A stretch of 61,263 bases of DNA from Spongospora subterranea f. sp. subterranea (taxonomy: Eukaryota), in assembly GCA_049724395.1 (NCBI GenBank), contig JAUGWO010000004.1, positions 1 through 61,263 on the forward strand. Reading direction: 5' to 3'. The notes under the pieces are model-generated. The model saw only the letters and a program-made list of their open reading frames with translations. It ran no database searches and had not been told where the DNA came from. How positions within the stretch are numbered: position 1 is the stretch's first letter; the number at the start of each line of letters is the position of its first letter. Of this stretch, positions 1 through 60,605 are shown piece by piece. Position numbers and translations under genes: made by a program.

Positions 1-687
1 ACGTGATTCTGCCTCTGCTTCTGTCGATGTTGTTTCTTCTTCAGATGATGACAACTTTGTTATTCACGATGCAGATGAATGGCTTCGGAACATGGACAAT
101 GTCATGGCTGATCGCGTCGAGGAGACTTTTCTGACTTGGAAATCTGGAGCAGGATCACAATTTAGAAAGCCGTACACAGGCGATTCACGAGCTTTCAAAT
201 TCAGGAAACAAAAAGCCAGGCGATTAAGAGAAGAGACAATGATTGGCTGCAAGCGAATTTCCCATTGGCAGAAATCACGCCATTCATTATTTCGATAGAT
301 TCATCACTTGAATGAAATAGTTCTTCATCGTCGGCTTGTTCATGATCGTCTTGCACTAATTGCAATTCGTCGGGAAGATCACATGTAGTTTCTGCTGCGT
401 GATCTCTGTCTTGACTAAACCAATGGGAAATTCGCTTGCAGCCAATCATTATCTCTTCTCTTAATCGCCTGGCTTTTTGTTTTCTGAATTTGAAAGCTCG
501 TGAATCGCCTGTGTACGGCTTTCTAAATTGTGATCCTGCTCCAGATTTCCAAGTCAGAAAAGTCTCCTCGACGCGATCAGCCATGACATTGTCCATGTTC
601 CGAAGCCATTCATCTGCATCGTGAATAACAAAGTTGTCATCATCTGAAGAAGAAACAACATCGACAGAAGCTGAGGCAGAATCACAT
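1..687. repeat. Long inverted repeat, arms 1-268 and 420-687, spacer about 150 bp
   Basis: The arms are reverse complements with few mismatches; the ORF track gives near-identical peptides on opposite strands (92..298+ vs 201..596-; 64..252- vs 436..624+). Confidence 0.95.
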
Positions 688-782
688 GTATCTGCAATAT
701 CGTCACAATCGCTTTGGCAAACCCTGAAGCGTGAAGCTGTTAGATTGGCAATCTGCTATCTTCGCTTGTTCAGACGCGGCAT
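1..782 (-). mobile_element. Relic of the 5' region of a Tc1/IS630-like transposase, folded into an inverted repeat
   Basis: The minus strand from ATG 782 reads MPRLNKRR*QIANL...LTWKSGAGSQFRKPYTGDSRAFKFRKQK, which resembles N-termini of fungal-type Tc1-like transposases; it has an in-frame stop. Family assignment is from recall only. Confidence 0.45.
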
Positions 783-1034
783 GTGGAACGAAAACTGATT
801 ATCCAACGTCAAACCAATCACAGTTGAAGGTGGTCCGCAGTTTGTTTGTGCGTCAGTGAACATGAAAAAAGCACAGTCATTGTTATATACACTCCTGCGC
901 ACATTTCTTCCATATATACAGTATCATTTCAGGCCGCTGCCACTACACCGGTATTAATATGTAAAAGTGCTACTCCCATATGGCATTTCCTGGTGGGAGC
1001 CCAAAATAACTTAAAAAGTGCGTATGATTATTAA

Positions 1035-2817
1035 CTCCCTCTGTGTCAAAATGATTGTCCGATTCGCGCACTTTGTCAAAATAAAGAAAGGAAATAAAAA
1101 AAACTCCGGTGGAAATGACTTTTTTGCGTAGTGCTCGTCATTAGCTCTCCAACCACGTCAGAACCCTGTATTTTGCACCACTGGGTCCCATGTACGGGGC
1201 CTCCCAAATTTTGCATTCTTGGAGGGCTCCCTCAATCACCCGCTGGAACTTCAGTATCTCCTGTAAGCGGACGTGAATGGTTCCAGAAGACGTTCCACAT
1301 GGCACCAAGCCTAATTTAAGTGATAATGAACGTAACGGGGTCTTACAAGATCTATTGGCTCATTCAACATCCGGAACTCTTGAAAAAGGCGCTATTAAGG
1401 CTACTGCTGCCAAATTTGAAGTCTCACCCAAAACAGTTTCCCGAATTTGGAGCCGTGCAAAAGAATGTTTAATCCAAGGAAAAAATTTTGCTGATGTGAA
1501 ATCAAGAATTAAAACAAAATCCGGTAGAAAAAGAAAGGACCGTGAGGAAATCGCTAGCAAATTCAAAGAGGTGCGTTTGCGTCAGCGGATGACTTTAAGA
1601 TCCCTCGAACATGCATGCAATGTTCCAGCGAAAACCCTTCACCGTTTCATGAAAGAAGGTGGATTAAAACGGATATCCAGTACGATAAAGCCTACCTTGA
1701 CAGCTGCCAACAAGAAGCAACGTCTGGAGTTCGCTTTGTCCATGTTAGAAGGCGACTCTGACCTTTTCAGTCCAATGTTGGATACGGTGCACGTGGACGA
1801 GAAATGGTTCTATCTCACAAAAATCAAAAAGAGCTTCTACCTTCTTCCTGACGAAGAGGGTCCTGAACGGTCTTGCCAAAGCAAGTGTTTCATCACCAAG
1901 GTAATGTTTCTTGCAGCTGTAGCTCGACCGCGTTACGATCCTCACCGTAAAACGATGTTTGATGGTAAAATTGGACTTTGGCCGTTTGTTACAGGTGAGC
2001 CTGCCAAGCGTAGTTCCAAGCATCGCACCCGAGGTACGCTTGTCACGAAGCTGTCGAAGTGAACCGAGTGCAGTACGTGAAAATGATCCTTGACAACGTG
2101 ATTCCGGCCATCAAGCAGAAGTGGCCACTTGGCAGCCAGACGATGCATTTAAAAATCCAGCAAGACAACGCTAGACCACATGCTAGTGTTCTTCAGCAGG
2201 AAATTTTGGAGGCAGGCAATTCGGAAGGCTGGAATATCAATTTGGTTTGTCAACCACCCAATAGTCCAGACTTCAATGTCCTTGATCTGGGCTACTTCAA
2301 CTCCATCCAATCACTACAACACCAAAGCGCCCCGAAGAATATTGACGATATTGTCGAGGCAGTTCATCAATCTTTCGACTCTCTCACAACCGAGAAGCTC
2401 GACAATGTTTTTCTGTCATTGCAGAAAGCAATGGAGTCGGCAATGAGAGCTCAGGGCGGGAATAATTACAAGCTTGGCAAAGCTCAGCTGCGACGTAATG
2501 GAACATTGCCTCTTTCAATCCACTGCGATCCAGAGGCAATAGCTGTAGCTAAGCGTTTGATTTTAAGCTAGTAAACACTTTAGTACTATCCGGGAAAATC
2601 ATTTTGAGCGTTTGATTTTAAGCTGAGCTTTGCCCATATGAGCGAGCTTGTAATTATTCCCGCCCTCAGCTTTCATTGCCGACTCCATTACCCAGATCAA
2701 CGACATTGAAGTCTGGACTATTGGGTGGATGACAACTGGTTAGTAAACACTTTTTAGAACTATCCGAACACTTTAGAACTATCCGGGACATTCATTTTGA
2801 CACAAAAACAGAGGGAG
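1035..2817 (+). mobile_element. DD39D (plant-type) mariner transposon
   Basis: TIRs CTCCCTCTGTGTCAAAATGATTGTCC (1035) and GGACATTCATTTTGACAC..ACAGAGGGAG (to 2817), followed by TA on the right; transposase ORFs lie inside. Confidence 0.93.
1277..2571 (+). pseudogene. Mariner transposase (DD39D), one frameshift near 2051
   Basis: Motifs VHVDEKWF, KVMFLAAVARP, QQDNARPH, QPPNSPDFNVLDLG, with 39 residues between the 2nd and 3rd Asp; ORFs 1277..2062 and 2059..2571 are in different frames. Confidence 0.92.
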
Positions 2818-4079
2818 TATACGAGTACCTAGATCATATGGCCATCAGGGCTAACACTATATGTCAACTATAGGACAATTAGTGTCACTCACACTAATAC
2901 CTGTAAGGTACAGTACAGCAGAGAATCGGTGGTTGAAAAATAGTGTCACTCACACTAAATACGGTAAACGGTGTAGTGAGGTGGATGGGACGGTTAGATT
3001 CGGTACCAACGCTTCTGCCAGAGACAAAGTGCTGTTCCAAGCAATCGCTCAGATGTCCCACGCTGTATTAATGACAGAACTATCAAACGTTGTCACACCA
3101 GAGATGTCACGTTCGAGAGAGGAGGAGGTTGATATTGGCAATATAAGGGACCAGTGATGCTTAGATAATTGGACGTCGTCCGAACTGAGCATTTGCCCGG
3201 AACAGCACCTTTTCTACCGCAGAAGCTTTAATACCGAATCGAACCATCCCATCCACCTCACTAGGTAAGTGTGAATGAAGTTCCTGAAGTGTGAATGAAG
3301 CTCCTGATTAACAGATCGATTCATCCTCTTCAGCAAGCTCCACATGTCATCTGAGAATAATCGTGCGTTTTGGTTGTTCAGGTGATTCGGCAGCTTTGAA
3401 TACATCCCCAATTGTCGGTGCATTGTGAAAAGTCTAAGGAACTAGCAAAGGGATTGATAACCGAATACAGAACATCCAACGCACTTACAATCATAGTCTT
3501 CTGACAAACCAAGAGCAACTGAATTAAGATACTGGCGCGCGTTTTTAAAAAAATTATCCGCCTTGTGAAGCTTATGGCGAGAACGACTGACTAGACAAGT
3601 ATCAATGTATCAATCAAACTGAAGCCAATTTGCTTGTCGGCGTGCCCTCGAGGACGGCAAGGCGATGCTGAAAGGCGGTGACGAAGTTGAGATACACCAC
3701 AACGAGCTCTTCGTCGCTCGCCGACTCGGGCCTCCTTCAGCTTCGCCGTGGCAGAGGCCAAGTCGGCCTCAAGCTGCTCCATTTTTTGTTGTCGCGACGA
3801 CATCTTTTGAAATGCAATGACGAGACTCCGTGGCACAGACATCTTCGAGTCGCATGCGTCAAGTGTTAAAGGAGGGCACTCCATCGAGTCTACTGTACTA
3901 CTGTGCCGCGCCGCGTGTAACTAATGAAGAGTGTATATAACTAAGTTAGTCCACTGGGGCACTTATTTTTGGGTGGACTGTCCACTAGTGGACAAAGACA
4001 CTTCCGGTTTAAGACCTTACATACGGTAATCTGTATTTTGGCCTGTATTCATTTCGTTTGGTGTTATTTATGGGATGAC

Positions 4080-9300: not shown

Positions 9301-10920
9301 TTACCTTTGCTGCATAACAGAACAAGCCGCGATGGTCAATATTGACCGAAGCAACAACAACCCCGTTGGCGACGACCTCAATATTGTGGTCGGATGACGC
9401 AATACCGGATACAGAGACGTGTCCACAAATGTCGTAACTAGTGGTACATGATGACCATTATCAAAGGATACCAACCATAGCATGGAGCAAACCTTTCAAC
9501 GACAACATCAGGGACAGCAGCACCGATAACATACGGAGGAAGAGATGAAAAGCTATATCCTTTCTTGAGGACCTGTAAATAAAACAGCATCAGAAGCGAA
9601 TCGCTGATCAGATAGATGAGATCTGACGTTGATGTTGTGAAATCCTTTATCACCGCTATTGGCGGCACTCCAAACATATAACCCATCATTGTCGGTGATA
9701 GCGGTTTGAACCCCATCAACGAATACATATGCGTCAGCGATACCTTCATTTGTCAAAGGGTCTCGTACGTATCCAGCAACATTTATGCCCGTAATGATGA
9801 ATGTTTCAGAACCTGAACGAACATGAATACCGAAAACACAACGACACTAGAGGAAGTAGTACTAAGTTGAAGTGGCTCAAACGACACCTCAATCGGGGCC
9901 ATATTACGATTGAGGGAATACGTCACAGCTGATCGGCTAACATCGATATGGAGGTCATACAATCCACAGGCAACGTCCTGATACGAAAAATGACCATCAT
10001 CTGAAACTACAAAATAACAGGTGCGATCTCCAAATGAACAATCATCACGAGACGCGCCAGATGGGACAATGATTACGCCAACTCCTAGATCACGTTGTAA
10101 GAGTCAAAAACGTGCTAAATGTTGCCGAACAGAAGACCCTTAGCGGATATGTCGGATTTGACAACTCCAGATATCGTAGCGCCAGGTATATTGAACGGGT
10201 CAAGATTTGATTCGCCCCAGGCCACAGAATGTTCCAAGTGCGGGCGAGACGTGATTCCAGATGGGTGAACGGCTTCAATTGTGTAGTTATCAGGACGGAT
10301 GCCCTTCAGCATGAATTCCCCGTTGGACTCTGTCCGGATTGACAACTCCTTGGTCTTGCCGGTGGATGACGACCGCAGTATTACATTCAGCGATTGGGAT
10401 GCAGGTGAATACTGAGCCCGGCATGATGGGAGTTGAGGAGCGTTGATAGAGCCATGAATGGGAAACCCTGCAGAAATTAATACTTGGTCATGTCGATGGA
10501 ATCAAACGTCCTACCGGTCAAGCGAAAATTGATATCTCCTTCACAAAACTGATCATACTCATTGGCGGTGAATTCCACTTCCGCAGGTTCGAACGACCAT
10601 TGGTTGGGATGTTCAACCCGGAGAATGAACGAGCCACTTTCGTAAATGAGAGCACTATAGAAACCATTGGGAGCACAGTATACGCTGTCCTTCTGTAATC
10701 CCGACTTGGTCAATACAGTCACTTTGATCAGCGAATAATCAAAATCCGGAGGAGCAAATCTACAAAATCAAAGATTGAGCATGTGTTGAAACGTGAAAAA
10801 AAAACCATCGAGAGCGTACTTTAATATGGAAGGGGATATTGATACCTGACCGCCGCAAGTTATAACGGATTCCGCATAGGCGATGGTCAGGAGTACCACG
10901 AGACCAACCGTGGCCCACAT
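6340..10920 (-). CDS. NOMO: Nodal modulator (NOMO)-like ER membrane protein, multi-exon
   Basis: Signal peptide MWATVGLVVLLTIAYA, then CGGQV...DYSLIKVTVLTKSGLQKDSVYCAPNGFY...YESGSFILRVEHPNQWSFEP, matching the NOMO N-terminus; repeated beta-sandwich motifs (DGSYRIRGLTPG); C-terminal TM (VFTILIGFVMVLCLV). Exon boundaries not fully resolved. Confidence 0.88.
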
Positions 10921-12189
10921 GTGACCCAGAATATCCCCAGACCGTTGGCGACCAGAACCAGCGTCTTGCGGAATACGACGGCCCGAGGGAGGAGGGCGGG
11001 GGGGGGGGGGGGTCGCGCATGGCGCACTTACGGCATCCCGGATCAGGTGATATGCCGTCCCGCAGTATCGACTACTGTCATCACAGTGTACACATGATGA
11101 CGGCTGACCCGCCACAAAGTGTGCGCAGCGGTATTCGAATTTCTTCTTTAGTCCTGATTTTCAGATAACGTCGTCGCAATTTTGCCATCTCTCATTTTGA
11201 TCTCTGTTTAGTGCCTGAAATTGCAGATAAAACTATACAGGTGAGGTGTCTGAAATGATTCGAGAATCTGTTGGAAGTTGAGTATCACTCGGATGTGGTA
11301 GTGATTGTCGAAGCTGGGGGCGTTTCGAGAACGGTGGAATCGTGGAGGACTTAACGGCGGGTGAGGTCCGCCGTCCGGACCGGTGGGGTGGGGTTACCGG
11401 TTCCCCGGCACACTCCACTCATACCTGTTACCGGCAATACAACGTCGGAAGACATTATACGGATTCGCAACAACAATATCGCGCTACCAAATGTGTTCTT
11501 TCCGAATCAGTTTGATCAGCTCATTACAAAGTCAAAACCCCGAAACGTCCAGAGAGATCCGCGCACAATTTATATTTGGGAGTGAATGCGGATTGTTTCG
11601 AAAAACTTTTGAAAAATCCATTGGCAGTTCCGCTGCACAAATCTACGAATCTCCTTCATCCAACAACCAATGATATTGCAATCACACTGCAATGCAGAAT
11701 ATGTGCTGGTATTATCCGCTGCTGCAACAGCGATTGCCAAGTCATCACGCGGCCTGACCAGAATAGGCCATCACAGATCAAACAGAAATTCGTTCTGTCC
11801 TTGAAAATAGCCTAATTCAACTCCTTGCTATATTGCTCCTATCAGAATTTGTTTAGCCAACTTTGATCTTGTCATGTGCGAATGTAAGAACCTGTGGGGC
11901 TCATCAGTGGTTAAATAACCGCTGCATCATTTTTGCAGCGGGACTGCCAATCATCACCTCAGGTTTTGAGAACAAAAAGTTCGAATGACGTATATCCTTG
12001 TTCGGCCTGTCTTTTTTCGACATTTGTGCCCGTGGAAGCTCGTTTGAGTCGTTTCGACTACATGATCAGGTCGAGCACAATTGTTTCGTAACTTAGTAGC
12101 AAATAGCAGGCTCATCCTTGCCGATAAACACTGAGGAGAGGACGACCTGCGCGATCTCCGTCTGGTCGACGATTCCGACCAGTATGAAC

Positions 12190-12298
12190 CACTCTCGTAA
12201 AATACGAGCACTGCAGAAACCATTGGGAGCACAGTACTCGCTGTTTTTCTGTAATCCCGACTTTGTCAATTCAGTCACTTTGGCCAGCGAATAATCAC
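12190..12298 (-). pseudogene. Duplicated fragment of NOMO exon 2
   Basis: Diverged copy of 10633-10741 (DYSLAKVTELTKSGLQKNSEYCAPNGF vs DYSLIKVTVLTKSGLQKDSVYCAPNGF) in an unrelated context. Confidence 0.85.
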
Positions 12299-14102
12299 AA
12301 TCATTGTCATATTCCGGCAGACACTGATCGAGAATCGCAGAGGAATCGTCCACCATATGGAGTTCGCCCAGGTCAACAGGTTCACTCCTTTGTGGTCACC
12401 ACGAGCACAAAGACGCCACGACACGAGCCGACCACAAGTAGTGGCATGAGGCGATGACGGAAGAATATCGATCGCCTATGGGAAAACAACACATGGACAC
12501 TCTGTATCTTCAGATCCATAACGTCATCAAATTCAACCTTTTGGCGCTGGATATCTCCATCAACGTTGACGGTGGCTCAGTTTGGTTTGATGACAGTTCG
12601 ATCATGAAATATCGCACAGAGTGTCCCAGTATTGTTGTCCATTGGCGATGGGTTTTCTTCGTCATCGCCTCTTGCCCAGTCTTGTTGTGACGTCCTTGCA
12701 CGTGGTTGGCTCTGTGATCACAAGGGCCTTGTTCTTCGGTTTAGCGAACTGCTGTTGTGGCTGGCGGGCATGTGCCCCTTCCATGTTGTCGTTCGAGGCG
12801 CTCCGGTCTGTCAGTTGTGCGAGTTGACGACCTTTGTTTCAATCGGGCAGAATTCGTCAGGTCTGAGAAGGATCGTCGTCTCTGCACGGGTCGTTTGGCA
12901 ATTTTGTCGGCGCAGGAGCGGACGTTGCCGATGGTGCTGCTTCTGTTGGTGTCGGTAGCTCCTCGCCCTCGAATTCGTGCAACACTGAGGGCAGGAACGT
13001 CACGGCTGATAATGAGCTTTAGTGTCGTTTCTTCCTGCAGTTGGTCAGCTTTGCTGCTCCGTTGCGTTCCCACAGGAACTTGATTTGGATTCAAACTTGC
13101 GTCTCTGGGTATGTCAGCCAAAAACTCGTAAATGGGCATGGTCGTAAGCAACGGCTCTTTCTGAGCGTTCGGCTGATTTCTGGTCGATCGACCATTTCTT
13201 CTTCCTACCACATGCGTTAATGAACAGCGCTGTATATCTGATGTGTCTGAAGTTCGTTTGTTGTTTACTACAGGAATTGTTCTACGCTTTTATTCAGGAC
13301 GTGTCTGCCGTAGTTCGCAGCAATGAACTTTTCTAACGTGTTGGATGACCTATTATGTGCCTATGATGTCCTTTTGATTATGTCACCCATAATCACCTTT
13401 CGACATCGTTCCGCAAACACATTCAAACTCGATGCGAACGGCATGAGACAGAGATACGACCATGAATTGAAACGGTGCTGCGATCAGTCAAACGATGGAC
13501 ATTGCTGGCGGCAGGGTGGGTTTCTGCAGAATCCCACACAGGATCTTGATTCTGTGCCTACAACGACGGCTCTTCTTGCGTTTTTGACAATTCGCACCAA
13601 TCTCTGGTCTGCAGTGATGACATACAGAGAACGTCATGGGTCGGGCGCATGAAATCAGAGTGATTATCATGTCGTTACCTCGGGTGCTCGATCGCCGCCC
13701 GAGCCTCTCGGTCCAATCTTACTGTCTCCTCCGACAGTTTAGGGTCAAGTTTTGACGGTTTTACTGTGGTTGCCTCAAATTCTATTACTCCACTTCGTCA
13801 GTGACATGAACTGTACCGAAAGGGTTCGGGCGGCCATCGATAACCCAGGCGACTACACGACCCTCAAATTTATTATCACAAATGTTTTGGCATTCATTCT
13901 CTTATAAATGGGTTGGTTTTCAAGCCGACCATGCAGATACACATTTTCACGTATTTGCACAGATTTCAGCCTGTTTGGTTTAGGTGGAATCAAATCGAAT
14001 CAATGGGATGTTCATCTTGTTAGCCTAACCACTTAATCCTGTTGACTCACCATTTTTCCTGATTTTTCATACCACTTAAGCACTGCTCGCAATTGTAATT
14101 TA

Positions 14103-44560: not shown

Positions 44561-44691
44561 TCAAATTTATAAATAAATACAGTTTTCAATGAACCGAATA
44601 GTTCAGCTCACCAGGATTGACCAAATTAATTCACGAGAATCAAGTAAGTGCCCTTTGCAGCACTTGACGGTTTTCTAAGAGAAAATGAGTA

Positions 44692-46272
44692 CAGTACCGG
44701 ACACCTTAACTCTCCAACTTTGCCACTACAGGCTACGGAGTATCTGATAACGTTTACGTCCAGGAACAAACTCGGATTACAACTGAATAAATCGATTGCA
44801 TTTGCAATTTTAAGAAGGGTGATTGAACTAGAAAATTTGAATTCGAATTATTGACTGACTTATGGGCACTCAAACTATCGACTTTTTCAAGTATTTGAAA
44901 CATTATAGGTGAAAAACAGTTTTGTCCATAGATACACTTAGAGAAATGCGTGCGCACATATTTTCGCAAAACAATGTTGCGACTTACGGACCAGTAAACT
45001 GCGCCCAGGGCAATCATTCAGGAAGGAACCCAACCAGAACAAGAAGAATCTGCATGCATTTGCTTCTGATGCTTTGGTAGCAAGCCGCTTAAACCTGAGC
45101 GATGGCGGAAAGACCCCGTAAAATCTACGAGGCCAGGATGGTACATTTTAGACTGTGTGAAAGTTGAGCATGGTATGGTGAACGAAGAAGGGCAGCAGAA
45201 AGGCTGCAGAACAATTTTACAGGAGCGCGGTTTGTGGCCTTTAAGCGGTTTATCGTTGAAAAACGCCAGGAACCTGTTAGGACAGCAACCAGACTTTCAG
45301 GAGCAATAAGAATGGCTCATCGAAACCGTTACTTCCGACCCAGATTTCATTGTGAATTCAACCACATTGAGATGTATTGGGGACAAGTGAAAAGGTATTT
45401 GAGACAATACTGCAACTATTCATACAAAGGTCTGGAAGAGATGTTACCAGAGGCGTTCGCCTCAGTTTCAAAAGCCACAATCAGGCGACACGCTCGCAAG
45501 TGCTTTCGATATATGGACGCGTACTCGATGAAAAACGGCCAATATCTTAGCATGAAGCAGGTGGAATTCGCTGGGGGCGAAAATATCGTCGACATCGATC
45601 TGTACCTAACTCTATCTTTTCAGAATTATAAAAATGTTTTCATCGCCTCTGGCACTTTGCTCACTGATCTGGATGAATTTGCAATGAAATCTTGGGAGAA
45701 ATTCAATCAGAAAAGGCTGGGTCAGATAACGGTTTCGGTGAGCAATTCTTTCCATTAGTAGAAGGTTTTCCATGCGACATTCGCTCTTTGATGTGGCTGA
45801 TAACAACAGCATATTCGACGAAGGATGGTTTCGCAACCAATTCCGTTGCCTTCGTCGATCGTCGATGACTGCGCCCATCGCCTTCGTCGATGACTGCGCC
45901 CATCGCCTTCGTCATCACTATCCAGAACGACCGCCAGCGCTTGCGCAATGACAGAAATCATCGCTGGAACAATGATCGCCGCCACTCTCCGACGACGGAC
46001 CCTCACCAGTTTGTCCGTGGCCAATCAGAACGCTGCGCATGTTTTCGGATCTCTATTTATTCATCTACATATTTCTTACTTGACCCAGGCGCCAAGTTCG
46101 TTCTTCGCGCATATTTACCTTTTTCTGCGAGCGCATATTTAGCTTTTTGCGAACTCATATTTAGCTTGTTGCGCACGCATATTTAGCTTTTTGCGCACGC
46201 ATATTTAGTTTTTTGCGTACGCATATTTGAAATTGAATTGAAACAATTGGAGAGTTAAGGTGTCCGGTACTG
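44692..46272. mobile_element. Tc1/IS630-like DNA transposon, internally rearranged
   Basis: Perfect 26-bp TIR CAGTACCGGACACCTTAACTCTCCAA with TA at both flanks; transposase core QKGCRTILQERGLW, QQPDF, RFHCEFNHIEMYWG on the + strand; subterminal GCGCATATTTAGCTTTTTGC repeats at 46105-46230. Confidence 0.92.
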
Positions 46273-47453
46273 TACAAGATGAAAAAAAAATGATTTACCT
46301 TAGCAGCTGTCTTTACATGTGTTAACCAAGGTTCGGTAGCAACTTCTTGAAGTATGCTTATAAGACAACGAAAGGGCAACCAAATTCCCCTGATTTGTGA
46401 AGCTGTTTCACTTCAATACACCACTGGGCTCTTTGGTCAGTGCGTAAGACGATGGAATAAGCAGAGAGTAATAATTATGGGCGACGGTGTCGGTCAATTT
46501 GGACAAAAAAAACTATTCATCACCGGCGTACGGTTAAGAAAGTTACGTCTTTCAACAAGCTTCTTATGTTGTTCAGAGACTAGAGGCGCCTTCTTCATTC
46601 TTGCGACCAAGTTTCTGGAGAGAAATCCCACCCGGCAGCTTTCTATCCCATCGCGAATTCGATGGCATGCAAAACAGGGGCAAGCATTGTTTCCATTTCA
46701 GCAACGATTTCTGCGCCCCTACCGGCAACTCACATTCTAAACTGGTCGCGTCCGGGGGAATCTGATGTCGTGCCCCGACCAACGACCTCGGCCTAGCGTA
46801 CTCTCCTTCAGTTACTGATCTGTCGATTGTATCTCTACCGTCCGATCTGTCCTCTCGCTCTTCTTAATCTCTTGTCAATAAACGGATAAACCTCTGCTGA
46901 CTCCTTGTCTTCCCCCGCGATAGCATAACAGGATACCCGTTGACGACAATTAGTGAGCTAATGTACAAAACCGATGTTCCGTGCATCCTTGAGGTTTCCA
47001 GCACGCTAAGAGAATTGCAGTCCTCTTCGAGTGATTCTTCGATCGAGGCAGGTCCAGGCAGCGCAGACGTTGTGCATGGCCTGTTGGTCAAGTTTGAATA
47101 AAAATTCATATCAACCAGCCAGACACTTCCCAGTCTGCTTATATACGATTGCCAATTGGCTGCCGACCTAAAAATTATCCATGTGGTTATACTGGAAGAG
47201 TGGTACCAGGGAGGTCAAATTTGCGAAGGGGCGATTTTACAAATTCCAACCGGGGTGTTTGTAAATTGACAGAAGTATAGTTGACTGGCCCACTTCTGAT
47301 CCCAATAAGATATATCCTTTAGAATAACCCGACGACGGTTGTTGACTTTTTCTCAGCAACAAGAGCTAACAAGAAAGCTGTGGAACTGTATAAATTAGAA
47401 CCCATCATTTGCTCTTTGGTTGAGCAGTTCTGGTTGTAACAAAATTATCTGAT

Positions 47454-50033: not shown

Positions 50034-50129
50034 GAACGGAGTGCAATCTACGGAACACCGGGGTTGACTTTACTCTAACAGTGGGGGGCATGTGGTTGAG
50101 TGGTTGACTGCACCTGAACAGTGCCGGGG

Positions 50130-50918
50130 AGATGGTTGGGAGGTTGACTTCCCCTGTACAGTGCGGGTAGATGGTTGGGATGTTGACTTCCCCTGTACAG
50201 TGCGGGTAGATGGTTGGGATGTTGAATGTTGACTTCCCCTGTACAGTGCGGGTAGATGGTTGTGATGTTGACTTCCCCTGTACAGTGCGGGTAGATGGTT
50301 GGGATGTTGACTTCCCCTGGACAGTGCGGGTAGATGGTTGGGATGTTGACTTCCCCTGGACAGTGCGGGTAGATGGTTGGGATGTTGACTTCCCCTGGAC
50401 AGTGCGGGTAGATGGTTGGGATGTTGACTTCCCCTGTACAGTGCGGGTAGATGGTTGGGATGTTGACTTCCCCTGGACAGTGCGGGTAGATGGTTGGGAT
50501 GTTGACTTCCCCTGTACAGTGCGGGTAGATGGTTGGGATGTTGACTTCCCCTGTACAGTGCGGGTAGATGGTTGGGATGTTGACTTCCCCTGGACAGTGC
50601 GGGTAGATGGTTGGGGGATGTTGACTTCCCCTGTACAGTGCGGGTAGATGGTTGGGATGTTGACTTCCCCTGGACAGTGCGGGTAGATGGTTGGGATGTT
50701 GACTTCCCCTGTACAGTGCGGGTAGATGGTTGGGATGTTGACTTCCCCTGTACAGTGCGGGTAGATGGTTGGGATGTTGACTTCCCCTGTACAGTGCGGG
50801 TAGATGGTTGGGATGTTGACTTCCCCTGGACAGTGCGGGTAGATGGTTGGGATGTTGACTTCCCCTGTACAGTGCGGGTAGATGGTTGGGATGTTGACTT
50901 CCCCTGGACAGTGCGGGT
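50130..50918. repeat. 39-bp minisatellite, about 20 copies
   Basis: Unit GTTGACTTCCCCTG(T/G)ACAGTGCGGGTAGATGGTTGGGAT, head-to-tail with no spacers. Confidence 0.97.
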
Positions 50919-51686
50919 TTTTGGAAACAGAGCTTTGGTAGTTCGCGTGAAGAGTTTAGGGTGAGGGCGATGGCCGATAAGTCAAATCGACAGAGTTGTC
51001 GTTAGCTCATTACATTGATTACCTTAATTAGTGTGTAAACCTATTCAGTGTGTACACGAATACAATGTGATAAACACCTAATGTACATTATTAACAATGA
51101 ATTAGATGCGGTCTATCTTTGGATTTGAACGGTCTTTGGCATAAGGAACAATTGTCTCCAAAACTGCAAGAAATCATAAAAAGTACCCGCACTGCAGAGC
51201 AGAGTTGGCTTGCCGAAATTGTCCTGCAGCATCGAGGCTTCATCATCGGCTTCTATCTTCAGTTTCACTGCGAATTCTTTCAGATATTTGCAAGTTGTTG
51301 TGCCTATCGCATTGGAAAGCGTGTCAACACAGGCCATACGTCGGGCAAGTTGCGATCACCTTAACTCACTGCATATTCAGCTTGCTGAACAGAGAGAGGA
51401 TTGCCATTTGCGTCAATGGCTCGATATGCATCCATATATCGGTAGCATTTTCGTGCGTACCGACGTATGGCCTGTGTTGACACGCTTTCCAATGCGATAG
51501 GCACAACGACCTGCAAATTTTTGAAAGAATAAGTACAATTCTTTCTGGTATAGCTTTTGCAGGCACCCCAATACATCTCTATATAATTAGATTCGCAGGG
51601 AAACTTAGGATAGAAGTCGATGATGAAGCCTGGATGTTGCAGAGCAATTTCGGCAAGCCAAGTCTTTTGCTCTGCAAAATCTGGTT

Positions 51687-54600
51687 TGTTGAAATTACTG
51701 TTGAGTCGTCGAGTTGCGGGCATGACAGTGATGATGTCGATCGGTGACGGGGAGGACTTTCCAGCCACTGGTTTACAGTGACCAGTCGCCGGGTCAACGA
51801 CTGGGACCAATCTGAGCAATCTGCTGAATAAACTTCACTTCCCAATTGATCAACTCTTATACAGTAGTCTCGTTTATCAGAAGACCCGTAGTTGATGGAC
51901 GACCACGATCTCAAGCAATCGGAACTGCAACCAACTTCTCAGGTTATGTGCCCAGTTCAGAGGCTTGCGTTGGCCTTCACCGGGCAGAAATTAAATGGAG
52001 AAAACTGGACTGCGTTTAAGTTCGCGTCCGAAACTCATTCAAGGAAGGCAACAGCTCCATGACGTTCGGACGAGTGACACGGGCGCAAGCAAGGTTGATA
52101 TTGATATGGCCTGTTTGATTTCAGTGCAAGCACTAGAGCCCAATCAGTACGAACATGTTTATCAACCGCATGCGCAGCGTGGTCGGCTTTAGTGGGCTTC
52201 TACGCGTCGAAGAATGCTTAAAACGTCCTGCTATCGACACAAGAGTTCCGACAGACAAAGATATCGGAGAGTGGATCGCTATTTGCACACTTTTCAAAAA
52301 TGTCTTAACTGTCCAGACGCCTCGGCAATGCAAGCGGAGCGAGCGTCAGCGACATCGACTTGCATGATTACTTCGACCGTTGTCCTGTACTTGACAACAT
52401 GCATTATCGAGAAGCACATGGTCGTCATGACGAGGCGTCTGGACATCGACTTCATGACGACCGTGTGCTTCTCGATAATGCACAGTACAGGACAAGGGTC
52501 GAAGTAATCATGCAAGAATCAGTGTTAGCAAAAACAGAATTGATCAACCGCCTGTTGACGGCAGAACATAGATTGAATCTCTGTTCCATCCCGGAACCTC
52601 AAACAGTTTTTGATGCAGAAGAAAGGAAGCGCGAGAAACCGAAGAGGAAATGCAAGTGTTATAATTGCAGGAAGGCAGGGCATTGGGGACGAGATTCTGG
52701 GTTACCCAAGAAGAATCAGAGAGCGAGTGTTGCTTCAGAAGTGATGTTCATGGCTAGTCACAAGGAGGACGACCAGGACGTGCCTGGCTGATAGACAGTG
52801 GTGCGTCCTCGCACATGATTCACCAACTAGATTCCCTGATGGACTACGAGATACTGGTGCCGGTACGACTTGTTTGGGCGATGGCAGACGATTAGAGGCG
52901 ACACAGATTGGCTGCGTAAAATTGGGAATAGGATGCAGACTCAATCATGTCCTGTATGTACCTGGACTGAAACAAAACTTGTTCTCAGTTGGAGCGGCAA
53001 CCAAGCGTAAAGGGAGATACCTGTCAAATCTCTGTCGATGTCAAGCTGGTCATCAACTAACAACGGAGTAACGGCGTATACAGATTCGAAACACTTCATT
53101 CGGAGAAGGTGTATCAAGCGCAAACTGACGTACGAGACGCATTCGAATAGCACAGGAGGTGCGGTCACGTCAATATGGAAACTCTTCGGAAGATGAGCGT
53201 GAAAGGCATAATCCCACAATTTTCCACGAATAGCCAAGTTGTGGACAAGTGCACAGTATGCGCGAAAGGAAAAATGGCGAGATTGCCAATACCGAAGTCC
53301 TCAACAACTAAGACAAAGGAGCTACCTAGGCGAATTGGTGCAAAGTGATCTGTGTGGACCAATGAGCAATAAGGTCACTGTAGGGTAACTGGTATTTTGC
53401 CGCTTACATCGACGACTATACGAACTGGGTTCATATCGCTTTTGTGGCCAAGAATCTGAACAGCTTGAAGAATTTCAATCGTTTCGTGCGCTTATGAAGA
53501 AACAGTGGGGGCGAACATCAAATGTCTACGCAGCGACGGAGGTGGCGAGTACGCAAGCAACGAATGCCAAGGTTTTCTGAAGAGAAAGGGACCTTGTGGC
53601 AACGTACCGCACCAAGGACTCCTCAACAAAACGGCAAGGCAGAGAGGATGAACAGAACGATCGTGGAGAAGGCGCGATGCCTGTTGTTTGACTCTGGACT
53701 ACCGACTTCGTATTGGGATTACGCGGTCCGGTTGGCGGCCTACGTCAGGAATAGGACAATAACGTGAACGAGAAGCCACCGTATGAACTCATTCACAAGA
53801 GGCTACCAAGTCTTGCAAGTGAGCCACTGTTCGGATCTCAAAATTCTGGTCTAATAGGTTCCTTCATTGGCTACCCAAGCTACTTGTAGCGGCCAGGCGG
53901 AAGTAGGGAAAATTCCTGGTACAGTAGTACACAGGATTACCCGACCCGTAAGAACCCGCGTACCTTTGTATACCATACCATACCTGTTCGGATCTCTAAG
54001 GTTCATGTTCCAGATTCACATCGAAGCAAGTCCGACAGCAAATCAAGACAATGCAAATTCTTTGGGATTTGCGGATGGTGCTAAGGCGTATGTGTTTGAA
54101 GACTTGAAGACGTCGAGAGAATTTATATTAAGGGGCGCAAAATTGAAGGAGACTCGCACAACACCAGTCGAAATGTTAGCGGATGACGACGAGGAAGAGG
54201 AATTCCTGCCCGCAAGTGCAGACAAAGGCCAACTATTCAAGAACGCGAATTCGAGCATGAAGGTGCAAGACAGCAGCGGCGAAGCCGCCCTCATCGAGAA
54301 GAAGAAGCTGGAACTAAGAACGAGCAAGCGAATCACCTGGAAGCCGGCACTGTACATGAACGAGTATGCCGGCTGTGCCTTGACAATTAAAAAAAATCCA
54401 GCAACACCAACTATGGCGTTGAACGATAAAAGATGGAAGAGAGCAATGGAAATGGAGTGCGATTCATTGAGCAAGAATAAGACTTGGGAAATTGTTCCGC
54501 GACCAAAGGGAAGAAATGTGGTCAGCGGCAAATGGGTGTTTAAGGCGAAAACCGATGCTGCAGGAAACGTGATCAGATGCAAGGCCCGCTACGTGGCCCG

Positions 54601-55638
54601 AGGAGTTAGCCAAAAGCCAGCGAACACGCCATCTATTATCACAACGACAAGTCTAAGTGACTCAATCGGCAAAGTAAAGTTTCCTTATTCAGCTGCTGTT
54701 GGATCCCTGATGTACCTGATGCTGGGAACAAGACCAGATATTGCAGAAGCGGTGGGAGCAGTCAGACGACACACGAGCAATCCGAGTGAGCAAGATGTAG
54801 TGGCACTCAAGAGAGGTTTACGATATGTCGCAGGTACTACGTCGATGGGGATCAAGTACGACGGTAAGATATCAAGCAGTAATCTTCTTGGGTTCGCCGA
54901 CGCCGATTATGCCGGCAGCGAGGTGAATCGAAAGTCGACATCGGGAGTTATTTTTATGATGAACGGTGGTCCGATAAGTTGGACAAGCAGATTGCAACGG
55001 TGTGTGTCCCTGTCAACAACTGAAGCTGAATACGTGGCGTTATGCTCAGCAGCACAAGAGGCGTCATGGCTTCGCGGTCTGCTTAAGGATACGGGATTCG
55101 AACAGGATGCGCCAACGATCATCTATGAGGATAATCAGGCGGCAATCGCGCTCGCAAACACATTCCAGACTAAGCGCAGGTCGAAACACATAGAGGTCCG
55201 CTATCATTATACCAGGGATCAGATCGTGAAAGGAGTGATTCAGCTGCGATATTGCAAGTCTGACGACATGACGGCCGATATACTGACTAAGCCACCTGGT
55301 CCAGTAATTTTTAACAGGCTCCGCAAAAGTTTCATCGCCCGTACGCTCGGGTGGGAGTGTTGAAATTACCGTTGAGTCGTCGAGCTGCGGGCATGACAGT
55401 GATCATGTCGCTCGGCGGAGCTTGGCGACGGGGAGGACTGTCCTGCCGGACTTTCCAGCCACTGTCTTACAGTGACCAATTGATGGATCAACGATGGGGA
55501 AAGGGGCAAGTGCAATCTGGCAATCATCCCTGAATAAACTTCACTTCTTAAATTGATCAAACTCTTCTCATATAGTTCAGAAGACCCGCGTTGATGGCCG
55601 ACCACGACCTCAAGCAAACGGAACTGCCACCTTCTTCA
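51687..55638 (+). mobile_element. Ty1/Copia LTR retrotransposon, degenerate
   Basis: LTRs 51687-51941 and 55358-55638 (TGTTG...CA); PBS GGTTATGTGCCCAG (copia half-tRNA-iMet type); PPT GGGTGGGAG; Zn knuckle CYNCRKAGH; protease IDSGASSHM; integrase TPQQNGKAERMNRT; RT KWVFK.K...KARYVARG; RNase H ADADYAG...STTEAEY...KHIEVRYH. Confidence 0.95.
53840..53983 (+). mobile_element. Short insertion with 13-bp TSD and (TACCA)n tail; probable 5'-truncated LINE or SINE
   Basis: CTGTTCGGATCTC at 53827-53839 and 53984-53996; the insert ends ...TATACCATACCATAC. Confidence 0.65.
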
Positions 55639-55688
55639 CGGGGAAGACCAAGCAAAGTGTGCAATTCTTCTTTGACCCAAGAGGCAAA

Positions 55689-56036
55689 CGTTAGGAGGAA
55701 CCAGATCCGTTGAAATAAACCGAAGTGTATTAATACAGACTATGCAAGGAGTTGACAAGAATGACCAGGCAGAGGTCATTCTTGTCGGAAAACTGCGGCG
55801 GACCTGCGGCGAAGCCGCGAATGTTAGGAATATATGGGAGTGTTCCTAACTCCTTAAGCCAGGGCCCGGCTTGGACGGGTAATCCACATGAAACCGACGA
55901 ATCGTTTCCTTTTAAGGCCGGTGTGGAACCAAGGTTACGTGCGGGCTCCCACGATCCTGGTCATTCTTGTCGGAAAACTGCGATGGAACTGATGCGAAGC
56001 CGCGAATGTTAGGAATATATGGGAGTGTTCCTAACA
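55689..56036. mobile_element. Solo LTR, 348 bp
   Basis: Ends (C)GTTAGGA...TCCTAACA; 5-bp TSD GCAAA (55684-55688 and 56037-56041); removing it rejoins the transposase frame ICGASFA-SWVKEE. Confidence 0.8.
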
Positions 56037-57029
56037 GCAAAGCTTGCACCGCAGATTCTCTCGGGCGGTTGCGATCGGAGCCATACTCGGCATTGTCGAG
56101 CAATATCTTCATCATAAATGAACGATTTAGATTTTACATGACACCCCTGCTGATGTGAAGGCAATTGCCCGGTTTTAAGAAAAAAGTCTGCCCATTTTCT
56201 GATCTTCCTCGCCTGATGGTCGGTGTTCTGCTTTGGAAAATGCTCGGCAACAACAGTTCTTGATATGGAAATCCTACTGTTGCAATTTTCAAGTAGATGA
56301 AAATACTTTTCGATTGCAAGATAACGAATAAAATCGTACTTTGAAACGGCATTCATCTGTTTTTCGTATTGCACATTACAGCGAAACTTGGTCAAGTTTT
56401 CCAGTAGTTTCAAAGCATCTTCAATGGACATGCTCGGCGTCGCAGCTGTAGAAGTGTTGATGTCAGGCTCATCAACTGGGAAAGCACTTGACGTGTCAAG
56501 ACTGCTGTGTTTGGAAGCAAAAAAATCTGTGATCTTTTTGCTGCCTTCAGAAGAATGAAGTAATGCAAGTTTCTGTTTCCTCTTGCGCCATTCAGTCGTT
56601 CTGCTTGACCCAGAGTAAACGGACCGTAGATGAGTTCCTGCTCCAGGTCTCCATGTGAGAAAAACGAAGACGGAACCGTCGACAGGTGGTCATCTCTGAC
56701 ATCGTGTTCTTCCATACTGAAATAATACAGCTCTTCGCTCACATCGTCCAGAAGAATCTCAGACTGCTTACTCCGCTTCGCCTCTCTGGCCAAGGCCAGA
56801 CGCTTCCATTGCGAATTTTTCGGTGCCATCGCAAAGGTACAGTAATCCCGAACAAGAAGAATTGCGCCTCGGGAGACTTCGCAACTTAATTTGCGCAAAG
56901 CAAAAGTGCGCACGCAATTATCAAAATGCGCACGCATTTTTATCAAATTTGATTTTCCACCATAGATGTTTCAAAACTTCGGGTCGCCTCATAATTTAAA
57001 AGTCTATCACGGGCTTCAGTTTAAAGAAA

Positions 57030-57212: not shown

Positions 57213-58209
57213 AAATACGGTTAACGGTAAGGTGCCGTACAGTCACGGAATTGTCGGTTTACCGTAGATGACATTATTATCCATCCACATTTAGGTCCGT
57301 AAATGGATGCTAATAATGTCACGGCATATATATCGCGTAATTTACAAAATACCCCAAATCTAGATCTTTATGGGAGCAGTGAATTCACTGGCTTGATTCA
57401 CTGGCCGCACTTTTTCAAGCCAGTGAATTCAATATCTTGGTATGAGCAGTGAATTCGCTGGCTTGATTCACTGGCTTGACGCATTTATCTGAGCCAGTGA
57501 ATCAAGCCAGTGAATTCACTGCTCATACCAAGATATTGAAATCACTGGCTTACTTCGCTGGCCAGATTAACCTATCGGATCAATCGGGACCTTCGCAAGC
57601 TCAAGAAGAGAATTTGAGGATCTGCGTTGGAGAAATTATTTCATTTATTCCTTCAGCATCACAAGCAGGCCGTTAGTGACATTAGAACGTCGTTGAACGT
57701 ACACAGTTTATGGTATGGTTACCGGTCGTTGAACGTACACAGTTTATGGTTACCGGTACACCCTTTCTAGGACAAAAACTCTCCTTTGTTCATCATTAAA
57801 AATGTCATCCTATTTCGATCGGCCTGGTTAGTTGAATTGGGTTCTTTGCTTCCCATCATACTGATCAATGCAGGGAACAAAGAATCGAAAAGTGTGTTAA
57901 TTCCTCTTTATGACTTTCAGTAATTGGTGTTGTCAAAATGTTTTCTGCGATCAGTTCTGAGCAAAATAAGTTGGGTGCTTGCAATATCTCAACTTGTACA
58001 CACGGCTATAGGTGTTGCTCAAACATTGCCGGTGTGTGGCCAAACTGCCGGACAGATCATGTTTTTTTATCGAAATACTACAAGGCTTAATGACATCGGA
58101 AATAGAATGTAATCTGATTTAACGCAGCTCGCATATATGCGTATGACTAAGGCCTTCCTGAAAAGCGCTTATGATCAAAGATAGCAGACAAAGACACAAG
58201 AAATAATTT

Positions 58210-58700
58210 TCAGTTTATCTCCGGATTTTTGACGTAGAAAACGAAAAAAGAAAGTTGTTTACGCCCATTGGTGATCGGCGAGATAAGTACAGGCCTTCCG
58301 CCATTATCAAGATCATTATAATGAAACCAGCCCGGTATGGGCACATCAGCTCGTAGTATATGAGAGTAAAAGTGCATACCGGTACGTTGTGTGGCGCTAA
58401 TGCGCCCTACTTGCGTCCATTTGCAGCCACCAACATTCAGAATCAAATTACAGTCAATTTCCGCAGACATCAAATCTTGCGGTAATTCGACGAACATGAT
58501 TTTGTCCGGTATCTTCACCACAAACCGAGCATCTTTTAGCAACACCTATAGCCATGTGCATAAGTTGAGAGATTGCAGGCACCCATTTTGTTTATACTTG
58601 ATCGCAGCCTGGATCATAACATCTTCTGTCTGTCTCCTCGTACGCACCGTCGTTCATCAATACATCCAAGACCGCCTGTAAGGATGATTCGGCTGCCTGT
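58210..58700 (-). pseudogene. C-terminal half of a ubiquitin-specific protease (peptidase C19)-like domain
   Basis: SLQAVLDVL...RCYDPGCD [intron] ...IPDKIMFVELP...GMHFYSHI...WFHYND...FFVFY resembles the USP Zn motif, P..L..L box and His/Asp box. Confidence 0.6.
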
Positions 58701-59289
58701 TCGACCATCCACTCAGTGATGTACTGAAAATATCGATGCGGTCAAGGAAAACAATATGGAGAATTAATCAGTGCTGCATACCAGGATTGGCCACATTGTC
58801 AAAGCAGTTCTCAAGCTTGGTTGAACGTGATTGTTCCAGCAAATCATTTTACGCTATATCAGCCATGACTTAGTTACGATCAACGTATAATGCCTACGAT
58901 TCAAACCTGAAAATGGAATGACCACAAAGCCTGCATATCTTGTGGACATTCCAGCAAAATCTGGTTGAGCACAGTAAACTGCTTTGATCAATGTGGCCAA
59001 TCCTTGGATGCAGCACTGATTAATTCTCCATACTTGATTTCCTATATAAAGGTTATTTATATGGAAAAAACTGAGTAAATGTTATCGTAAATATCGCTAC
59101 CAGGAGGATTAGGCCTGACCATTTCGATCAGCAACTACTGACGAACCCTCGACCAGGGAAGAAAGCACATTTACGATAACATTTACTCAGTTTTTTCCAT
59201 ATAAATAACCTTTATATAGGAAATCAAGTGTTGCTTAGATTGCCATCCCCTCATCATAAGACGAACCGACTCTGCGTTGGTTCCTGGAG

Positions 59290-59947
59290 TAGGGACTAAC
59301 AATTGCTGTGCGGTCCTTCTTGGAGCTGCCATGACAATGTCCTTAGCGCCACACAACGTACCGGTGCAAAACGCCTGCTTCCCGTAGTGGTCGGGTTTCT
59401 TGACGTGAGGTATTTTATGTTCATGATTCCCATCATGAATTATGATACAGCGATCTTTCACGAAGTGTTGCACCCACATAATGGCGCATTCACAAGGATG
59501 ATGTCGCATTTCCATCGAACAAACAGGGCACCTACAGCAGGACATTGAGATGAGGTCTCATAGCAGATGTAATCACACTTACATGCCAGTTACCCTTGTC
59601 GGGTAGTTCTGGTTTGGCCGCATGCGAACCGCACAATCACCATTGGTACACAATAACACCCCACAGCACCTCTTGTAGGTTACCGAAATTCCTTTCGGGT
59701 TTTCCCCAACAGGAATATAATTCGATCGAGTACAACGCCATTGCCAGTGGCTGAACCGGGACATTAGGTTGGGTTTGACAGACATTGACTCAAACCGGTA
59801 ACAACAGTTGCCATTGATAGCAAACGGAATCTTAATCAGCATCGGGTAGATGCTGATCTGCATCAGGTGGAAAGAATTCGAACTGCTTGATGTTGAACTC
59901 GTGAATATCCCACACCTTTCGACTTTTTTGTTCCCCGCATTGAGCAC
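59290..59947 (-). pseudogene. GCM-like zinc DNA-binding domain (N-terminus of the element protein), spliced
   Basis: FSHWQWRCTRSN...YKRCCGVLLCTNGDC..RMRP...R/CPVC...HPCEC...HDGNHEHKIP follows the GCM pattern W.MR...K.CLGV..C...C...RP...CP.C...PC...G.H.HP.P. Confidence 0.75.
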
Positions 59948-60605
59948 GAAAATACAATTATGATGGGAAGCAAAGAACCCAATTCAACTAAACAGGCCGA
60001 TCGAAATAGTACATAGTACAGTTGCACTGGATGTGCATCTTGTGCATATTGAGGTCGCCGGTAATATCCAATGATGAACAAAGGAGGGTTTTTGTCCTAG
60101 AAAGGGTGTACCGGTAACCATAAACTGTGTACGTTCAACGACCGGTAACCATACCATAAACTGTGTACGTTCAACGACGTTCTAATGTCACTAACGGCCT
60201 GCTTGTGATGCTGAAGGAATAAATGAAATAATTTCTCCAACGCAGATCCTCAAATTCTCTTCTTGAGCTTGCGAAGGTCCCGATTGATCCGATAGGTTAA
60301 TCTGGCCAGCGAAGTAAGCCAGTGATTTCAATATCTTGGTATGAGCAGTGAATTCACTGGCTTGATTCACTGGCTCAGATAAATGCGTCAAGCCAGTGAA
60401 TCAAGCCAGCGAATTCACTGCTCATACCAAGATATTGAATTCACTGGCTTGAAAAAGTGCGGCCAGTGAATCAAGCCAGTGAATTCAACGTACCCGATCT
60501 TTATTGCTAAAGTACCCCAAAAACGCAGTTTTAAAAAATACTGTCACGCACTATGGTTGTTAATTCGAGGATCCCCCAATCCAGCTCGCCAATCATTTGC
60601 CTACC

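Follow-up and report, generated by a model that had tools for sequence, protein, structure and literature searches.

Inverted duplications in relic DNA of Spongospora subterranea: likely template-switch repair scars that may feed RNA silencing

In Drosophila, a lineage without RdRP, the hpRNA loci that give rise to endo-siRNAs form long stems, imperfectly paired, whose sequence is copied from that of their targets. Plasmodiophora brassicae likewise lacks RdRP, although AGO and a Drosha-like enzyme are present, and where its dsRNA comes from is not known (PMC13547706). Mu killer duplicates part of a transposon in inverted orientation and can thereby fold into dsRNA (PMC3440606). At the level of DNA repair, MMBIR and SD-MMEJ are described as producing template switches at homologies of 1 to 5 nt (PMC7407515; PMC11724301), and yeast fold-back insertions are mostly 5 to 34 bp (PMC11724301). 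We analyzed a window of 61,263 nucleotides from Spongospora subterranea f. sp. subterranea (GCA_049724395.1, contig JAUGWO010000004.1), in which a Pin1 gene has its best match in Plasmodiophora. We found about 16 genuine inverted duplications and antisense patchworks in the window (Table 1), which are probably scars of template-switch repair tolerated in mobile and relic DNA, and some of which would likely feed RdRP-less silencing.

A blastn self-comparison of the whole window yielded 25 inverted pairs with arms no more than 1 kb apart, 17 of them outside the MULE terminal inverted repeat (TIR) modules, whereas each of 30 block-Markov shuffles of the window gave 0 pairs. An earlier note, made from the sequence alone, had listed 11 inverted loci, and all 11 hold inverted sequence at or near where it placed them; loci absent from its list were found at 2974-3263, 12134-12389, 12443-12676, 42628-42905, and 59345-59369. 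About 16 events were locally templated, multi-switch insertions. The rest, including the MITE at 23862-24110 and the MULE TIRs, were rejected as events, being ordinary element anatomy. A Pfam search of 119 short ORFs from relic regions found no transposon family, so motifs and repeat structure are the basis for naming the pogo and MULE elements and several of the relics.

Table 1. Inverted events and associated elements in the window
Event	Position	Strand	Feature	Details
E1	3-685	-	Fold-back of N-terminal relic (Tc1-like, DDE_3)	arms 3-268 and 420-685, 98.9%; loop 151 nt
E2	2240-2760	+	Patchwork inside mariner right TIR	mariner about 1033-2818; HTH_Tnp_Tc3_2
E3	2974-3263	-	Old inverted copy of minus-strand exon relic	82%; 3' of relic, beside terminal motif
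E4/E5	12134-12676	.	Two old inverted pairs	12134-12176/12342-12389; 12443-12500/12620-12676
E6	17565-17929	+	Inverted copy of pogo-like ORF end	130 nt, 97.7%; 152 nt past stop
E7	18458-18935	-	Hairpin in RNA-polymerase relic	arms 195-197 nt, 97.9%; loop 86
E8	21024-24422	+	YR element with inverted duplicate of own 5' part	285 nt; 21024-21295/24139-24422, 97%
	23862-24110	.	MITE-like, high copy	bounded by TA on each side; usual TIR anatomy, excluded from events
E9	42628-42905	-	Old antisense copy past stop of minus-strand ORF	84%; 75 nt past stop
E10	43568-44322	-	Antisense copy and two direct copies	3' of MULE-associated last exon
E11	45308-45750	+	Old short inverted overlap in Tc1-like derivative	perfect 29-nt TIRs; element 44689-46275
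E12	51128-51676	-	Two antisense patches directly past Tc1-like ORF end	profile positions 503-557 and 574-598 of 646
E13	52310-52516	+	Insertion in Copia gag	11-nt duplication bordering two reversed local segments
	57372-60496	-	MULE-like derivative	418-nt TIRs (ordinary anatomy); 9-nt target duplication
E14	57945-58607	-	Old antisense copy of last exon	74-80%; 91 nt past stop
E15	58980-59257	-	Filler with two inverted segments	278 nt in place of 1864 nt of full-length family
E16	59345-59369	-	Insertion, reverse complement of 58378-58400	24 nt; source about 950 nt off

Copying of nearby sequence in reverse orientation was resolved in E2, E13, E15, and E16. E2 reads as a duplicate of 2553-2569, the reverse complement of 2489-2430 and then of 2291-2247, and a resumption at 2569, with junction microhomologies of 1, 4, 0, and 0 nt. 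The reversed segments of E13 are the reverse complements of 52452-52514 and 52310-52324 (microhomologies of 3, 0, and 4 nt), and E12 has a microhomology of 2 nt. E13, with its duplication around reversed local segments, and E15, with 1864 nt reduced to 278 nt, have the form of break, switch, copy, and return. Among the 11 scoreable junctions (eight scored by script, three by eye), 6 had microhomology of at least 2 nt (binomial P = 0.003) and 4 of at least 3 nt (P = 0.002), in agreement with the template-switch repair that the earlier note names as a maker of such patchworks, although 0 to 1 nt at the other 5 counts against a repair switch. In the proposed mechanism, a DNA break would lead to a microhomology-mediated switch, copying of a local template, and a switch back, along either an SD-MMEJ/Pol theta or an MMBIR route; extra breaks at element ends may come from transposase cuts. 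Neither Plasmodiophora nor Spongospora was named in the supplements of the NHEJ-loss survey.

The YR element (integrase match, E value of 0.005) is flanked by the inverted duplicate of its 5' part and together with it forms E8, the best killer-like candidate in the window, whose right arm meets the MITE at TA. The stretch 23862-24422, reported earlier as one inverted duplication, is composite: the E8 arm is an inverted duplicate, but 23862-24110 is high-copy MITE-like anatomy, with a bin depth of 3561 in sequencing set X1 and 15887 in set X2 (against single-copy depths of 26-35 and 55-77, respectively). Other YR copies have opposite-strand joints (21719/21829 and 22149/22236) at about single-copy depth in X1 and X2, indicating that the process acts beyond the window. 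In E10, the antisense part is 43901-43995 (79-87%) and the direct copies are 43568-43639 and 43837-43873. The MULE-like derivative has an empty-site joint from 57362 to 60496 in X1 and X2; its transposase piece had no database match, and a 22-nt MULE pattern had 0 matches among metagenome contigs. E14 is common to the whole multi-copy spliced family (X2 and X7 contigs 57831-58199 and 57896-58526, with introns), so that the inverted copy previously placed at 57811-58120 is present but not specific to this locus. The X7 contig 57896-58526, which carries no strand information, includes the E14 copy together with some of the template it came from. The E15 joint, 58979 to 59258, was seen in X2 and X7, and E16 was missing from the family contigs of both.

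Not all affected DNA is of transposon origin. E7, taken for a transposon in the earlier note, lies in what is left of a short RNA polymerase gene of the beta'-like two-barrel kind (18140-18745), a relic that is broken and single-copy; an X3 RNA contig without strand information, 17975-18435, ends beside it. E4 and E5 surround 117 nt copied from an exon of the host gene NOMO1 (10631-10746, 86%), a region in which domain searches found no transposon family. The gene family of E3 was judged by eye. The locus at 1-687, earlier called mariner, is Tc1-like (DDE_3 family). The single-copy relic with E6 was labeled pogo by motif, without a Pfam match. At single-copy depth, neither the E6 nor the E7 relic has another copy of at least 90% identity.

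The junctions were compared with contigs from two separate sequencing studies, of which X1 may be the source sample of the window and X2 is independent. X1 contigs with 0 differences and a single-copy depth of 19-38 covered 51000-51315 and 51478-51897 (E12) and 52332-52643 (E13, depth 30), and further X1 contigs with 0 differences at single-copy depth covered 16538-17622, 17612-17883, 17873-18508, and 23831-24179. X2 gave 16538-17622, 17873-18508, and 23834-24179, also with 0 differences. E6 was matched exactly at single-copy depth, and the left junction of E7 crossed, in both studies. Several junctions are thus spanned by exact contigs at single-copy depth, drawn from two studies, so the tested structures are not artefacts, which answers a concern of the earlier note. 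The check took in several loci, with 1-687, 2607-2753, and 42628-45750 outside it; X3 cover was absent over 17620-17903, 18472-19039, 51000-51342, and 52029-52714, holes that carry no evidential weight. That amplification or assembly chimeras made the inverted structures is highly improbable, given these contigs and arms that have diverged by substitutions and indels, even if E1 might suit such an origin, with its position at the window edge, its nearly identical arms, and its place outside the read-checked loci. The E1 copy may run past that edge.

Arm identity ranges from 80 to 100%, with divergence through both substitutions and indels; the arms are aged, as noted earlier, and the graded spread indicates a process recurrent over time. 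The 102 arm substitutions comprise 57 transitions and 45 transversions, on which RIP-like or methylation-driven decay was rejected, and 8 of the 102 are of CpG type. Folding gave helices of at least 21 bp, long enough for 21-nt duplexes, in 10 of 14 event regions versus 0 of 6 controls. E1 has an unbroken helix of 188 bp, and E11, with a 36-51-nt arm and a fold z of -4.0, is the weakest listed locus.

All events fell within 34.8 kb of mobile or relic DNA, and none in 22.1 kb of annotated host genes, so the reported absence from housekeeping genes held. Since purifying selection yields the same absence, it does not support a transposon-specific process, an idea that the affected polymerase relic also speaks against. 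The excess over 4.4 kb of plain intergenic DNA was not significant (P = 0.15), and with about 4.5 kb of introns (size estimated by eye) added the contrast was P = 0.03, the control DNA being small and the mobile/relic annotation partly circular. The contrast drawn in the earlier note stands for genes; against non-genic, non-mobile DNA it is not significant, and the value with introns weighs against a neutral reading. Event density was about 15 in 34.8 kb versus 1-4 in 136.6 kb at mariner loci of other eukaryotes, where hairpins are under-counted because the loci are short-read contigs picked by recognizable transposase. Two hairpin-rich control loci, L023 and L026, were rejected as relatives, being read by eye as grass DNA with MITEs. 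Antisense copies lie just 3' of an ORF end in 7-8 of 13 oriented events (post hoc P of 0.001-0.06), a bias not expected under uniform neutral damage. Each of three IS630-Tc1-mariner elements has one patchwork, behind its ORF, and 5' ends of elements are seldom affected.

The 3' bias and these three elements would fit selected killer loci, born of repair and favored where a promoter is kept and antisense sequence lies behind the ORF, whose siRNAs would act in trans to shut the family down, in the manner of Mu killer. Homologous active families that could serve as targets are present for YR, MULE, and Copia, and E8 and the MULE (two alike ends with a partial inverted duplication) recall the Mu killer layout; an RdRP-less RNAi with paired phased loci exists in the relative P. 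brassicae. However, the same bias is expected if active elements inherit only ORF-sparing events. E6 and E7 have arms of about 98% identity, but a family that they could silence is absent at the 90% level, and in the MULE it is the amplified family that bears the hairpin. YR and MULE yield abundant spliced RNA contigs at high depth (although depth cannot rank genes and another strain may behave differently). The observed/expected ratio for CpG is 0.98 in mobile DNA versus 1.0 in genes, and base composition in the window, with no CpG loss, revealed no methylation footprint, in line with the few CpG-type arm substitutions. We therefore regard killer selection, as the earlier note proposed it, as unlikely.

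Slightly less likely still is rearrangement driven by the transposons, in which transposase cuts (abortive gap repair, alternative transposition, or TIR extension) would create a mechanical bias with no host role. In its favor, the start of E2 coincides with the inner boundary of the mariner TIR, E15 has the classic form of an internal deletion filled in with other sequence, E8 is joined to a MITE end on TA, and the MULE has long modular TIRs; alternative transposition in maize creates inverted duplications (10.1101/2020.01.07.897926). Yet no transposase cut site is known in the Copia gag, in the polymerase relic, or in the NOMO1-copy region, the 5' ends are largely spared, and antisense transposase occurred at only 1 of 45 mariner loci elsewhere. 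Repair scars feeding RNAi are likely, rather than a transposon-targeting machine, and a dedicated transposon-recognizing machine is not needed. Under the repair reading, persistence in mobile and relic DNA likely reflects tolerance there, with genes purged through selection.

Some of the inverted duplications would likely fold into hairpin RNA and so enter an RdRP-less silencing pathway. Among the 435 phased-siRNA loci published for P. brassicae (PMC13547706, Table S6), 89 adjacent pairs lie no more than 700 nt apart, against about 5 expected; 20 of the 89 are length-matched within 5% (4.1 expected; 0 of 20,000 permutations reached 20), with a median arm of about 277 nt and a gap of about 154 nt, and 5 of the 89 are spanned by or centered on a listed fold-back precursor. 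These pairs were judged by position and length and could be direct tandem repeats with multi-mapped reads. Because AGO and a Drosha-like enzyme occur in P. brassicae without RdRP, and its phased loci pair like arms, the dsRNA role suggested in the earlier note is plausible, but its genome-defence system targeting transposons is unsupported. Fold-backs may be one supplier of dsRNA to the relatives' gene-silencing pathway, for which no dsRNA-making enzyme is known. A more speculative proposal, which we advance tentatively, is that plasmodiophorids replaced RdRP by a mutational habit, unusually frequent fold-back repair making hairpins the main dsRNA of a self-renewing Drosha-like/AGO surveillance. 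Selfish or foreign DNA would then turn into long hairpins, often behind the ORF and read from the element's own promoter, giving genome surveillance without RdRP or piRNA.

The 2026 description of P. brassicae RNAi leaves the origin of siRNA precursors open, and repair-made hairpins are a concrete candidate answer, testable in public data. Even without function, the density of fixed templated inversions suggests an unusual repair balance in a crop-parasite lineage, and dense fold-backs will break short-read assemblies and repeat annotation in plasmodiophorids.

Compared with known systems, the events resemble SD-MMEJ/TMEJ and MMBIR insertions in that sequence close by is copied through several switches at microhomologies of 1-5 nt, but the inserts of 60-270 nt exceed the mostly 5-34 bp given for yeast fold-backs. 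The segments of about 150 bp in small inverted triplications (PMC13334657) are comparable in size, whereas most events here are not DUP/INV/DUP triplications. Elsewhere, templated inverted insertions are known chiefly from mutants and cancers, where they are infrequent; in this window they are germ-line-fixed, dense, and common to isolates. Long-TIR MULE/foldback elements and MITEs account for 57372-60496 and 23862-24110 as ordinary members of their kind but leave the locus-specific patchworks E1-E13, E15, and E16 unexplained. Mu killer and Ac killer of maize (PMC3440606; 10.1101/2020.01.07.897926) share the partial inverted duplication, and the MULE here has two alike ends and an inverted internal copy. 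Those, however, are rare single loci in an RdRP plant; their arms measure about 1.3 kb, and their silencing in trans is proven. Here the arms are 24-285 nt, relic DNA carries about 1 event every 2 kb, several events have no target family, and silencing is a candidate role. Drosophila hpRNA loci are alike in their long imperfect stems; the templates here are mobile-element relics, with a predicted small-RNA output. P. brassicae has long fold-back "miRNA" loci as well as phased ones, and its paired loci match the arm and loop sizes in this window.

The window holds an unusually dense set of real, probably repair-made hairpins, intermixed with ordinary TIRs. Inverted sequence was present at all eleven loci where the earlier note had claimed it, and one pipeline recovered 25 close inverted pairs versus none in each of 30 shuffles. 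The artefact named in that note, amplification or assembly chimera, was checked in two DNA sequencing runs. Contigs of X1, which may be the source sample, crossed junctions of the inverted duplications E6 and E7, of E12 (Tc1-like) and E13 (Copia gag), and of the MITE, with 0 differences and at single-copy depth; contigs of X2, from a separate study, covered the E6 outer junctions, the E7 left junction and the MITE, also with 0 differences. Where tested in this way, the inverted structures are not artefacts. An unbroken helix of at least 21 bp was found in 10 of 14 window regions, each of which folded with a z from -11 to -55, versus 0 of 6 control stretches. When 45 metagenomic mariner loci (136.6 kb) were passed through the same inverted-pair pipeline, four had matches, and antisense transposase was seen in one (L026, a 1-kb inverted duplication). 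Event density was 15 in 34.8 kb of mobile/relic DNA versus 1 to 4 in the 136.6 kb of mariner controls (P 5e-10 to 7e-8), a control biased against hairpins.

Features of the window and of control locus L026
Feature	Position	Strand	Remarks
NOMO1 exon copy	12186-12302		117 nt, 86%; between old inverted arms
Polymerase relic	18140-18745	minus	broken, single-copy; short beta'-like two-barrel RNA polymerase gene
Direct subterminal-like repeats flanking polymerase relic	18023-18106, 18936-19027
Tyrosine-recombinase (YR) family	21260-23757		multi-copy; Crypton-like by motif; four spliced introns; very deep contigs in RNA run X3
MITE	23862-24110		TA-flanked; depth >100 times single-copy; ordinary anatomy
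Tandem array	50078-50918		~39-nt unit; marked GC skew; TFIIF beta on one side, transposon cluster on the other
Nested cluster	51050-56970		Tc1-like element without profile positions ~262-520; Copia and further insertion inside
Copia LTRs in nested cluster	~51687-51941, ~55358-55640
Very high-copy insertions within Copia and Tc1-like relic	53840-53998, 55684-56036		X1 bin depth peaks at 36,000 and 5,500
MULE-like derivative TIRs			418 nt; 9-nt target duplication; empty site in both DNA runs; ordinary anatomy
MULE intron	57826-57872	plus	GT..AG, spliced in X3; left end of MULE, opposite to transposase
L026 mariner relic	529-2510		grass-like contig; within 1-kb inverted duplication, 85% identity; Mu killer-like layout for mariner

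The inverted sequences are a mixture of three kinds: ordinary anatomy, old family-level duplication and locus-specific templated events. E14 is an old duplication at family level, borne by the amplified, spliced MULE family, which is transcribed convergently from both ends, as read from the plus-strand X3 intron. In E13 two reversed local segments are enclosed by an 11-nt duplication. E2 is a mariner broken where its right TIR begins on the inner side, and three segments, one of them direct and the others reversed, fill this break. Within the MULE, a 278-nt inverted filler replaces 1864 nt of family sequence (E15), and a 24-nt reversed copy was inserted from a source 950 nt away (E16). The sense copy lacks 9 nt (E2) and ~24 nt (E11, Tc1-like) that the antisense copy retains. 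Microhomology of at least 2 nt was scored at 6 of 11 scoreable junctions (P=0.003), the other five having 0-1 nt. Arm identity ranged from 80 to 100%, and the events therefore recurred over time; since other YR copies carry opposite-strand joints in both DNA runs, the formation process extends beyond the window.

The window is eukaryotic with short introns and ~45% GC, in agreement with the 45.7% given for Spongospora subterranea (PMC12883290, available in part), and its Pin1 has its nearest match in Plasmodiophora brassicae (63%). The other host genes are NOMO1, proteasome alpha, trehalose-phosphate synthase/phosphatase, WD40, E1 dehydrogenase, MBF1 and a kinase. By our own assignment, host genes occupy 22.1 kb, mobile/relic DNA 34.8 kb and other intergenic DNA 4.4 kb. 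The earlier note held that transposon relics are affected and host genes are not. All 16 events did lie in mobile/relic DNA (P=1e-4 versus the whole window) and the host genes were empty, an absence explained by selection; specificity for transposons was not upheld, as the comparison with plain intergenic DNA alone gave P=0.15 (P=0.03 once introns, estimated at 4.5 kb, were counted in) and E7, among the longest hairpins, lies in the broken polymerase relic. Relatives of this relic (P0133, P0135) are short beta'-like RNA polymerases; they span 566-807 aa, one is a NADAR fusion, and the nearest Atlas clusters are viral. E4/E5 lie around the copied NOMO1 exon, which is either a gene-fragment capture or a templated insertion from the host gene. 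An antisense copy fell within ~150 nt past the ORF end in 7-8 of 13 oriented events (post hoc P 0.001-0.06), a bias not expected of uniform neutral damage.

The earlier note further proposed a repeat-biased process or selection that generates dsRNA-producing killer loci. The defining trait of Mu killer is trans-silencing of an active family (PMC3440606, available in part), and the layout of E8, with a transcribed YR 5' end directed at a reversed YR ORF, suits such a role and makes it the best killer candidate. E6 and E7 have 98% arms and arose without a visible target, because no other copy of their relics at ≥90% was found in either DNA run. The YR and MULE families still yield spliced RNA contigs at high depth, a weak argument because expression levels cannot be ordered from contigs and the RNA may come from a different strain. 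No CpG loss was found. Selected killers are an unlikely reading, and we consider a neutral origin of the hairpins likely, with moderate confidence.

A link to RNA silencing is suggested by P. brassicae. According to the available part of PMC13547706, this species combines two AGOs with a Drosha-like enzyme and lacks both Dicer and RdRP, its small RNAs are 90% phased 21-mers chiefly from 'intergenic' loci, and its dsRNA source is stated to be unknown. In the complete Table S6 of that paper (435 phased loci), 89 adjacent pairs lay ≤700 nt apart versus ~5 expected, and 20 of the 89 were matched in length within 5% versus 4.1 expected, a number reached in 0 of 20,000 permutations. At least five of the 89 were spanned by or centred on a Table S8 fold-back precursor (miR038, 088, 096, 179 and 196; by eye, over rows to miR200 and part of the later ones). 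The available text makes no remark on length-matched pairing, and the word 'inverted' is absent from the main text and the supplements searched. The pairs were compared as coordinates; direct repeats whose reads map to several places might give the same agreement in length. That hairpins of the window type are the main siRNA trigger of the lineage is less likely than not, yet a fair possibility and a stronger one than selected family killers.

Killer loci, templated inversions and hairpin siRNA loci (the last in Drosophila, from a source available in part) are already known. In our literature search, which took in few subscription papers, no paper described plasmodiophorid relics densely folded back in this way or connected them to the missing RdRP. 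The locus-specific templated events share the signature published for MMBIR and SD-MMEJ (PMC7407515), resemble that described for yeast fold-back insertions (PMC11724301) and are similar in size to small inverted triplications (PMC13334657), as given in the available parts of these papers. The length-matched P. brassicae pairs have a median arm of 277 nt and gap of 154 nt, compared with 266/151 for the inverted duplication E1, 130/105 for E6 and 195/86 for E7.
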